64,000 bases of DNA from contig CAVNZM010000001.1 of NCBI GenBank assembly GCA_963693365.1, forward strand, positions 10,752,161-10,816,160. The letters run 5' to 3'. Below the pieces are notes generated by a model. It saw nothing but the letters and a program-made list of their open reading frames with translations, ran no database searches and was not told the DNA's origin. Source of the DNA: Amoebidium appalachense (Eukaryota > Protista > Ichthyosporea). The position numbers were made by a program, and so were the translations under genes. Below, piece by piece: positions 42,501 to 45,500 of the stretch; the first letter of the stretch is position 1; each line of letters starts with the position of its first letter.

Positions 42501-45500
42501 GCTTTAGTTTGCACACACATCTTCACCGTTTTGCTCACCTTGCTTGCATAAGCAACCCTGCTCGTCTTTGATCAAGACGGGTTGACCCTCCCAAGTTCAG
42601 TTGATGCTGCTGTCTGAGTTGGAGAGTCGTATATACGCGGGCTAAGGGGTCGAAACTCAGACGCAATTGATGACTTGGGCCCTCCCTGAGGATGGGCTCT
42701 GCTTCTGACGCATACTGTGCGTATGGCTGATGTTGCATACTTGAATGTTTGCCTTTGCATGTGTCCTGCACCATGCTTCTCATCGTGTATGCGTACTTCG
42801 TACCGTGTTCCGCATTCAAACCCCCCCCCCCCCCCCCCCCCCCCCACCCACCCACCCACCCACCCTCTCCCCCACCCCACCCATCCGCACAGAAACTCTC
42901 ATCATTCTGCTGGACTTACGTGCTTTCGTCTGCCCACACATTGAACCCTTCCCCTCCCCCCCTCCCCCTTCCCCCCTCCCCCCCTCCCCCCCACCCCCCC
43001 AAAAAAAAGAAAGAAAAAAGAAAAAAGAAAGGCAAAATCCACCACATTCCTTCCTCCCCCTGCTACACCATAGAACCACGAAGGTTAGGAGAAAGGCCGG
43101 GGGGAGAGGGGGGGGGGGGGGGGGTCCTTGTCGTTTTGAAATTCCAAGCGAAAGAGTGGAAATAGGAAGGAGAAAGAATGCCTTCCGGGGAAAAGGTAGT
43201 TAAGTTATGGCACCCGATTTCTTTTGTTTTGCTTCTTTATATATTCTCTGACACATCTCCCTTATCCCACCCCTCAGCCTCCCGAGGTTATCCTGCCATA
43301 TACGGAACATGCCATTAAGGAGGTTGCAAAATCAGATAAAGAGTACGTGCCCCCCCCCCCCCCCCCGCCCCGTCGTTTTCTCGTGTGCATGGTGACGTGT
43401 GTGATAAGCAAAAAAAAAATGTAGACGGATGGCAACACGTGCAAACAAACTGAATTTACGAAGGTAGATATTGGTTGTACTTTTGTCACACGTGCATTTG
43501 AACATTAGCCATCCTTTCATGCCCCCCTCTTCTTCTTTTTTTTTTTTTTTTTTTTTTTTTGTTTTGTTTCTGGTTTTTCTGTTTTTGTGACTTTTTGTGT
43601 TTTGTCTCTTTGTGTCTCGTCCTGTATTAGTCCAACCTTCTAATACATACATCACCTCACCCCCACTCCCCCCCCCCCCCCCCTCTCCCCCGCCCCGCCA
43701 CTCCCCCTCTCATACAACCATTCACATCGTGGCACACGAACACAGACCGTAGGGAAACACACATTATCTCTGGTCTAGGCCCATGCACTTACAACACACT
43801 CTCTGTTGAATCGCTGACACATCCCCCTCCCCCTCTACCCCCATACACACACACATACACACACACGCGCGCTTGCAAATGCTTACAAACACACACACAC
43901 ACACACACACACACACACACACACACACACACACACACACACACACACACACACACACACACACACACACACCACGCAGGATCACGGTGCAACTAGACGG
44001 AACCAATAACCGTGTTCGTGTTCAGTTCAATCCTTTTGTTGTCCAGTTCCTAGCAGGTGACGATGTTTTGGTAACAGCAAACAGGTGACTGCCCCCCCCC
44101 CCCCCCCCCCCCCCCCCCCCCCCCCCCCCCCCACCACCACCACCACCACCACCACCACCACCACCACCACCACCAATGTGTGCCTTGCAATACGTAGATG
44201 TAGGGCTACCAATCAAAGCAGTAGCGCTACTAATCAAAGCAGTAGGGCTACCAATCAAAGCAGTAGGGCTACTAATCAAAGCAGTAGGGCTACTAATCAA
44301 AGCATTAGGGCTACTAATCAAAGCAGTAGGGCTACTAATCAAAGCAATCTGCATGATTTTTCCGTCATGAATGTGTACTTCGTTTTGTATCTGTATTCTC
44401 CTCAATGTCTTTGCTTGTGTGTGCCCCACCCTCAAACTTCTATTATTCCCTTAGTTCCGCGCGGTGCCGCGGGGGGGGGGGGGGGGGGGGGGGGGGGGGG
44501 GAGGGGGGGATAGTGACAAAAATGAAATAAATGGATATAGAGAGACCAGGAACACGGGGCTGAAAAACTAGCACATTGCTCTAGCATGTAACGTGTCTTT
44601 GGTTTGTAAATGCTTGGGATTTTACGGTCGTGTTTTCAAACCAGTTGTATGATACCTAGATTGGTGCGGTGTACTAAATACCATCGTTCCACAGCCGAAA
44701 TCTGATGAAGTTCGAGTATCTTCGTGCCCGGCCCGAGGTAAGATTTTCACCACGCCTTTTGCATGCAACCACAACGATTTAGAGATGCGAATACCCATTG
44801 TTGCCATAGCCTTGGCTTCATGGGTGTATCCCAGACTGCAGTTTTCTTCGGATTTGTCTTAATGCTTTTTTGTCAGTCTTTATTGAGTCTTCGTCGTGTG
44901 TATCAAACGGTTTAATAGTCGCAGGTGGTTGTGTGTGTGTCTAAACGTGGGGGGTTCTCTTTGTTGCGTCTTTTTCTCTTTTTGTAAACAGGCAAGGGAT
45001 GTTTGTGCAAAAAAAACGACGATCCAGCGATTGTTATCGACTGGAGTGGTTGATTCAGATGTGCGTGTGCAGGGATGAACGAAGCAATTTATTTATTTAT
45101 TTTCATATATTTGTTTTCGTGGTCCCCGGGGGGGGGGGGGGGGGGAGGGGGGGGGAGGGGGGAGGGGGGTTGTGCAAGAGTTCAATGCTCATACAGAGGT
45201 CCCTCGCTTATTAATACACCCCCGATTTTGGCCAAAAGTGTGTTAATACGTGAGGTGTATTAATACGCGAACGCGACAGTTTAAGTGGTAAACTGCCATA
45301 TATGGTGTTGCGCCTGTGTTTTTACATGATTACAGGGGGAAGCCTATATGTCCCCCTGTACTGTCGTGCATTGCCGGAAGTGTATCAATACGCGAATGAA
45401 TAAATAAGAGGGTGTATTAATACGCGAGGGACCCCTGTACCTGATTGGTTGCTATTTATAGGCCCTGCCGGAGCCAGAGAAGAACGAAGATGGCACCTAC

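Follow-up and report, generated by a model that had tools for sequence, protein, structure and literature searches.

Two repeat subfamilies, A and B, in the genome of the ichthyosporean Amoebidium appalachense have unlike 5' parts yet share a core of about 150 nt, which raises the question of what this core is and what it may do for the element that carries it. We addressed it in a stretch of 64,000 nt (contig CAVNZM010000001.1 of GenBank assembly GCA_963693365.1, positions 10,752,161 to 10,816,160 of the forward strand), hereafter the window, to which all coordinates refer. A reading of the letters alone, here called the original prediction, had proposed a candidate new structured RNA or ribozyme with covarying stems and a pseudoknot. 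Our analysis indicates that the core contains a complete set of conserved hammerhead nucleotides and helices, in the block order S-G-C and open between A9 and G10.1, and that it probably self-cleaves after the GUU triplet at 42620, which would process the RNA of a non-autonomous Penelope-type element. The proposal of an unusual structured RNA is upheld, but as read from its sequence the core is a new wiring of a known ribozyme, the hammerhead, and not a new ribozyme class.

The core and its hammerhead parts

The window holds seven full structured cores, four of subfamily A (at 22354, 26198, 42543 and 49760) and three of subfamily B (at 23052, 47346 and, on the minus strand, 63257-63422), along with five core fragments (at 52709, 19795, 54534, 25786 and 17184, the last a weak model match with E 0.55). 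When the A copy at 42543 (A42) and the B copy at 47346 (B47) were compared segment by segment, identity was 68-93% in the core versus 51-55% in the flanks, bearing out the claim that the subfamilies share this core despite their unlike 5' parts. The stems quoted in the original prediction all lie at the positions it gave. In A42 the parts are as follows:

42548..42554, + strand: 5' strand of the closing helix P0, pairing with 42700-42706 (7 bp, with a private mismatch at 42705 in this copy)
42556..42567, + strand: putative splint strand
42561..42581, + strand: hairpin, from folding, with the self-complementary loop UGAUCA
42584..42589, + strand: stem II 5' strand, G10.1 at 42584, pairing with 42646-51
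42590..42595, + strand: 5' strand of the helix joining stems I and II (the 'I' helix of type SGC/CSG), pairing with 42674-79
42597..42605, + strand: kink-turn bulged strand, with C helix UCA, 3-nt bulge, 1b G, 2b A and 3b U
42606..42624, + strand: block S, with the NC helix, stem III 5' strand (U16.1 at 42619), H17 at U42620 and stem I GGAG at 42621-24
42625..42645, + strand: S-to-G linker, 21 nt long here and 18 nt in B; positions 42628-37 form a 10-nt palindrome
42646..42667, + strand: block G, with stem II 3' strand (C11.1 at 42651), G12 A13 A14 (42652-54), A15.1 and the stem III/NC 3' strand
42668..42679, + strand: kink-turn non-bulged strand (3n U, 2n G, 1n A, UGA) and joining-helix 3' strand
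42682..42692, + strand: first half of block C, with stem I CUCC and C3-U4-G5-A6-G7-G8-A9 at 42686-92
42693..42706, + strand: post-A9 strand, with U, GGG (splint partner) and the P0 3' strand

The resemblance of GAAAC and CUGAGGA to the hammerhead core had been noted before, and all parts of that core were found. In hammerhead numbering, GUC-GAAAC at 42649-56 reads C11.1-G12-A13-A14-A15.1-C15.2. The previously described inner stem is present as stem III, although its last pair, U42620-A42654, is unpaired in the hammerhead reading, which places U16.1 at 42619 and H17 at U42620, with the cut predicted after 42620. The GUU triplet (42618-20) lies opposite GAAAC, and an NUH triplet stands between stems III and I in all copies. 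Stem I is formed by GGAG pairing with the CUCC right before CUGAGGA (GGG/CCC in B, with an A-U pair replaced by G-C), and CUGAGGA follows the CUCC or CCC strand in all seven copies. Stem II corresponds to the pseudoknot GACCC/GGGUC and includes the G10.1-C11.1 pair that hammerheads usually have; its C-G to U-A change between subfamilies is solid, but the distal pair proposed earlier is A.G in the majority of A copies, since most of those in public runs read A at 42589. C11.1-G12-A13-A14-A15.1 lies between stems II and III, with both the A15.1-U16.1 and the G10.1-C11.1 pairs, in 7/7 copies. We assign the outer stem as the 'I' joining helix because it connects the strand that follows 10.x with the one that precedes 2.x, as Eckert 2023 places it, and the block order S-G-C is that paper's non-canonical class (PMC10085705; here and below, comparisons draw on parts of the cited papers). 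Stem I, the GUU triplet, and the kink-turn and splint discussed below had been missed.

A descriptor demanding the full core, at least 5 pairs in stem III, at least 3 in stem I, at least 5 in stem II and at least 5 in the joining helix was passed by six of the seven full copies, by none of 20,000 dinucleotide-shuffled versions of each core, and by nothing in 928 kb of unrelated loci.

The structure is a selected RNA fold of the + strand, the strand favored originally. In a seven-copy alignment of 46 proposed pairs (322 cells), 96.9% of cells were paired, versus 30-42% when the 3' partners were slid by 1-3 columns as a control, and 5/46 pairs were changed on both sides. Stem I pairs 3-4, absent from this count owing to gap placement, were counted by anchors in the comparison of A42 with B47: among 49 pairs, 35 were unchanged, four were changed on one side and kept, seven were compensatory (two in stem II, two in the NC helix, and one each in the joining helix, stem III and stem I) and three were broken, one of them by a private change of A42. 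Stems I, II and III thus each show a compensatory change between the two subfamilies, and all seven double changes preserve pairing. The core nucleotides are identical in 7/7 copies and untouched by variants among the 40 of 52 variant rows listed for four public runs (10,466, 10,334, 7,512 and 290 contigs). Moreover, run X19 carries a further stem II swap, in which T>C at 23096 and A>G at 23150 each have a depth of 1417; depth in X19 and X20, presumed to be RNA, was not taken as evidence of expression, and contigs cannot reveal a cut site. That these pairings arose by chance, in a repeat without selected structure, has a negligible likelihood: there are only two subfamilies and the minimum-free-energy z-scores are modest (-1.9 and -1.4), yet every double change is compensatory, no shuffle passes the descriptor and the core is much better kept than its flanks.

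Ribozymes of the HDV type follow the order P1-P2-P3-L3-P1.1-P4, with a catalytic C in J4/2. The resemblance to HDV J4/2 suggested in the original prediction did not hold, as GGCUAAGGG occurs only in A, B reads GGUGAAUAG or GGGGAAUAG and has no catalytic C, and neither subfamily shows a P1/P3/L3 order, no P3/L3 following the putative P2. A pseudoknot (PK) hammerhead or pistol layout was likewise rejected, with GAAA upstream of CUGAGGA and no A9-G10.1-loop-C11.1-G12 mini-stem. A comparison with Rfam over the 64 kb, as proposed at the outset, gave 0 matches at gathering score and one chance-level C/D snoRNA match (E 9.2). In the PK hammerhead/pistol of Zhan 2024 (PMC11300833) a pseudoknot serves the role of helix II, as it does here, but A9 and G10.1 are joined and the block order is canonical. 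That the core belongs to another or new class (HDV-like, pistol/PK-hammerhead or some further ribozyme), or is a box C/D-type guide RNA, is therefore very improbable; GGCUAAGGG in A, the box C/D-like kink-turn of A with its snoRNA match and the nested pseudoknots speak for it, while B lacks both the catalytic C and a kink-turn of box C/D type, and the layout, the joined A9-G10.1 of PK hammerheads and the Rfam result all speak against it.

The open catalytic strand and the proposed kink-turn hinge

As the original prediction had it, no canonical hammerhead topology closes; the non-canonical S-G-C order does, with an open core. The 10.x strand of stem II lies 108 nt upstream of CUGAGGA, before block S, which leaves the core open between A9 and G10.1, with the RNA ends exiting from within it. 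A standard type SGC, with 10.x after CUGAGGA, was rejected, the bases after A9 forming 0 pairs with the 11.x strand in the 6/6 copies tested, as was an upstream CUGA as replacement block C, which belongs to a hairpin loop and is replaced by UUGA or UUAA in A. An intact block C, in which the stem II strand follows A9 within 0-2 nt, is a defining hammerhead feature; it was not found here, and for this reason we assign the core to neither type SGC nor type CSG. Eckert 2023 (PMC10085705) sets out six hammerhead orders on the assumption that the CUGAnGA block is uninterruptible. Its types SGC (HRIMA-1) and CSG share with the core a cyclic S-G-C order, pseudoknotted stems, a far-side helix joining stems I and II and a full core. 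Their blocks are uninterrupted, whereas here block C is split at A9/G10.1 and all three inter-block links are closed; their S-to-G linker measures ~3 nt, as against 21 (A) or 18 (B); and they stem from metatranscriptome circular RNAs, whereas the present core, which adds a kink-turn and a splint, stems from a eukaryotic genomic repeat.

The strand 42556-67 could splint the A9/G10.1 break. Its CCC (42556-58) pairs with GGG (42694-96), which begins one base 3' of A9, after a single U, and 42561-67 pairs with 42575-81 (AGACGGG), which ends 1-2 bases 5' of G10.1. Of note, the (+) hammerhead of chrysanthemum chlorotic mottle viroid is interrupted at the same step (PMC3705267, PMC1636495): it tolerates an extra A10 there, U raised the rate 3-4-fold, and C or G was harmful. 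In the core described here, A9 is likewise followed by U. In the viroid, however, a single nucleotide bulges from a strand that runs on, whereas here the strand is broken outright, a gap that helices would span.

Where the joining helix meets stem III, A and B alike have UCA/UGA, a bulge of 3 nt, the pairs G.A and A.G, and then an NC helix in which two pairs covary. This standard kink-turn signature is present in 7/7 copies, is retained in the decayed copy at 19795, and arose in 331 and 854 of 100,000 shuffles of the hinge strands (chance 0.3-0.9%). The 3b.3n pair is A.G in B and U.U in A, both typical; A.G folds best, and U.U is of the box C/D type, which relies on L7Ae/15.5K. We infer that the kink-turn folds the joining-helix/stem III rod back on itself, a bend that is needed because stems I and II must connect the two ends of a rod of ~25 bp, its tip and its base. 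Neither an open-core hammerhead nor, in a single search aimed at it, a kink-turn hinge in a natural hammerhead was found in the open-access literature; subscription papers and the supplement of Eckert 2023 may bear on this.

According to the mechanism we propose, the kink-turn would bend the rod to an included angle of ~50 degrees, upon which the pseudoknotted helices I and II could form, and the splint would stack A9 back onto G10.1-C11.1. A host L7Ae-family protein (Snu13/15.5K) may aid this folding, chiefly in subfamily A with its U.U pair, and cleavage after GUU would be slow, perhaps helped by Snu13. The permuted hammerheads tested so far cleave, if slowly (0.004-0.19 per min), and slow rates here would fit both this range and the residence of sense copies in introns. 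More tentatively, and with rather less than even confidence, we suggest that the core represents a seventh, open-core hammerhead wiring, in which the splint helix replaces the A9-G10.1 bond and the Snu13/15.5K-bound kink-turn switches cleavage on.

The same chemistry could also be carried out by a domain-swapped dimer, held by contacts of the linker palindrome and the UGAUCA loop and with stems I and II intermolecular, as in minimal Penelope hammerheads. Two self-complementary sequences are indeed kept, the palindrome has a different sequence in each subfamily but is self-complementary in both (duplexes of -11.2 and -10.4 kcal/mol), and stem I is short. We regard this arrangement as rather improbable, as the kink-turn already provides the bend that a monomer requires, both palindromes could be local hairpins, dimerization would leave the A9-G10.1 break unrepaired, and the UGAUCA loop is altered in the A copy at 49760.

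The carrier element and its proposed copying

Copies of the carrier share one 3' end point (CATTCAAA, then a C-run), and their 5' starts vary, lying mostly right after genomic poly-C. Two copies extend beyond the full 454-nt unit into the end of a previous unit, giving partial tandems at 25906 and 42355; an array of two full units was not present in the window. Loose ends of poly-C pile up at 23184, an internal C-run (57 contigs in X3 and 84 in X8), and the junction of unit end to unit start was seen in DNA runs X14 and X16 and in X20. The repeat is non-coding, with a longest stop-free frame of 105 codons and no Pfam match. A viroid-like rod was rejected for unit A, whose circular fold lies just 1.6 standard deviations below 40 mononucleotide shuffles.

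Targeting of (C)n, a fixed 3' end, 5' truncation and partial tandems are traits of Chlamys/Naiad elements, and the sequence of the carrier displays them. In Craig 2021 (PMC8557442), Naiad/Chlamys elements insert preferentially at (C)n and have truncated 5' ends and partial tandem copies; like them, the carrier has a 3' end reading ...AACCCC, but it has no open reading frame (ORF), and ichthyosporeans are absent from that paper's main text. The carrier is thus likely a non-autonomous Penelope-type, retrozyme-like retroelement, presumably served by a partner reverse transcriptase. It may resemble the non-LTR (long terminal repeat) animal retrozymes (bioRxiv 10.64898/2026.07.22.740005), which consist of non-coding tandem units with one hammerhead each and are likely mobilized by Penelope elements; those retrozymes carry type I hammerheads and avoid introns, whereas the carrier has a permuted open core and is intronic.

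In the cycle that we envisage, tandem transcripts would be cut once per unit into ~454-nt monomers, which would be circularized, and a Naiad/Chlamys-type reverse transcriptase would use the internal C-run for priming on a G-tract nicked in the genome and copy around the circle. Such copying would give the fixed 3' end, the variable 5' ends and the partial tandems that span the cleavage site, and passage through the resealed site would explain the full-length and longer-than-unit copies.

Craig 2021 reports Naiad/Chlamys elements as having no canonical hammerheads, some having 'half cores'. We examined by eye the consensus ends of 8 Naiad and 4 Chlamys-file elements in that paper's files (PMC8557442), the first entry of each section being named from file order. 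In all three Nippostrongylus (Nbra) Naiad ends (File S5) a type-CSG hammerhead is intact and its joining helix has 7-9 bp; two of these ends are listed in the paper just as core or half core. Both Darwinula Naiad ends read S..G..C, with a helix right after A9 and S ~500 nt upstream, and three Clytia Naiad ends gave an ambiguous reading. Unlike the core described here, the Naiad ends examined show no kink-turn and no upstream 10.x strand. Among the Chlamys-file ends, the two from Chlamydomonas have no core and the two from Physarum have the canonical order. Five family motifs and one variant had 0 matches in the supplement of Craig 2021, where line breaks may hide some, and no paper linking Naiads to permuted hammerheads was found in the open-access literature, although subscription papers may bear on this.

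Several observations weigh against the reading of the core as a self-cleaving, open-core hammerhead of a Penelope-type element. The count of pairs changed on both sides was reached by 317 of 500 column shuffles; the covariation comes from two subfamilies and amounts to one evolutionary comparison; core invariance is by itself weak at ~79% identity; and the splint helices, invariant in 7/7 copies, show no covariation. For A, ViennaRNA, which cannot score pseudoknots or kink-turns, favors an alternative fold in which the predicted cut site is buried; its pair probability for the scaffold is 0.27 in A42, 0.50 in the A copy at 22354 and 0.68 in the B copy at 23052. Stem I is short, with 3-4 bp (-3.9 to -5.2 kcal/mol), GUC is a better triplet than the GUU present here, and the -1b.-1n pair of the kink-turn is A:U, not the C:G that favors unaided folding. 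Sense copies within introns of housekeeping genes argue against rapid cutting. Known hammerhead alignments, as given in Eckert 2023 (PMC10085705), have at most 1-2 nt inserted beside CUGAnGA, and the open core may be inactive. Regarding the carrier, the tandem junction occurs in DNA runs too and so is not a mark of circular RNA, and 0/4 of the Chlamys-file 3' ends examined carry the present core. Pfam found no reverse transcriptase or GIY-YIG domain in 164 ORF stretches of the window, in a scan that left out low-complexity stretches and 70 stretches of 50-89 aa before 39 kb. Finally, pattern scans of viral, metagenome and prokaryote sequences found no homologue outside the host group, though distant relatives could escape such family-specific patterns: the raw matches (6 and 45 in viral contigs, 93 in metagenomes and 23 in prokaryote genomes) held no real member after helix filtering, with short chance stems in 3/93 and 2/68, and blastn among the first 99 pattern-match loci gave 0 matches.

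Some of these points would equally fit a hammerhead-derived fold that has lost its cutting activity and persists because the reverse transcriptase, or an L7Ae-family protein, uses it for recognition or packaging. The open core, the GUU triplet, the competing fold in A and the tolerance of sense copies in introns all agree with such a fold, as do the thousands of contigs that span the predicted site, although contigs cannot reveal cuts. We nonetheless consider it unlikely, since none of the catalytic nucleotides has been lost and the short stem I persists with a compensatory swap, neither of which a pure binding site would obviously require, and since the permuted hammerheads tested are active despite their slowness.

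Should the seventh wiring prove true, the core would be a natural protein-gated hammerhead, and Penelope elements with an N-terminal endonuclease, held so far to lack hammerheads, would use scrambled ones in hosts as far apart as unicellular holozoans and animals. If active, an open-core form would overturn the assumption that the CUGAnGA strand stays whole, would imply that descriptor searches overlook a whole set of ribozymes, and would offer a testable reason why Naiad/Chlamys retroelements seemed to have no hammerheads. A kink-turn hinge would, in addition, provide a handle for protein control.

Copies, host genes and neighboring features

The copies and further fragments in the window are:

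42367..42820, + strand: full 454-nt unit of subfamily A, inside an intron of a GH31 gene
22354..22525, + strand: A core copy, in an intron of succinyl-CoA ligase beta
26198..26369, + strand: A core copy, in a full unit
49760..49931, + strand: A core copy, 5' end cut off at a poly-C tract
23052..23217, + strand: B core copy, with G10.1 at 23092, H17 at 23127, G12 at 23155 and C3 at 23189
47346..47511, + strand: B core copy, 5' end cut off at a poly-C tract
63257..63422, - strand: B core copy, in an element at 63179-63826
17274..17322, + strand: divergent fragment, GAAAC and CUGAUGA-UGGG with the 28-nt spacing of full copies
19795..19914, + strand: decayed copy retaining the kink-turn GA/GA and stem III
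54534..54701, + strand: decayed copy, from a sequence model match
52798..52923, + strand: 5'-truncated B fragment that begins within the kink-turn strand

The unit at 42367..42820 is preceded by 17 nt of the 3' end of another unit and followed by a poly-C tract; its host gene, on the + strand, is glucosidase II alpha-like. A partial unit of ~125 nt (25906-26031) directly precedes the full unit of the 26198 copy, forming a tandem. In the copy at 22354, stems II and III are broken by point changes, and in the divergent fragment at 17274 the stem III strand differs and CUGAUGA lies at 17309. The succinyl-CoA ligase beta exon (54 residues) has Creolimax and Sphaeroforma among its best named relatives, at 81% identity each.

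The window is eukaryotic, with many introns, and rich in C-runs and CA repeats. Its + strand holds 121 C-runs and 51 G-runs of at least 10, and most copies lie in the sense orientation of + strand genes because C-runs outnumber G-runs on that strand. At 22215-23294 a B copy (element 22641-23294) directly follows and abuts an A copy, and a loose end in X19 shows the opposite, B-to-A junction; the subfamilies therefore appear to insert into each other's C tails or to share templates. Fragments of 3' ends, from the same or additional subfamilies and some retaining the P0 3' strand, lie at 47036-47140, 19960-20050, 23330-23430 and 17672-17776. Loose ends and joint letters in runs X19 and X1 suggest additional subfamilies that differ in stems II and III and share GAAAC and the GGAUGA kink-turn strand.

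Elsewhere in the GH31 gene, an intron holds at 45195-45440 an element of ~240 nt with terminal inverted repeats of ~30 nt and TA flanks, resembling a miniature inverted-repeat transposable element of the Tc1/mariner type, and a 21-nt unit is repeated in tandem (~7 copies) within intronic sequence at 44196-44345. Head-to-tail duplications of ~81 nt occur at 791-951 and 27502-27664 (99% and 84% alike). Further host genes include a long EGF/VWD/SdrD-B surface protein at 1-9300 and exons with SH2 and RGS domains at 28400-30000.

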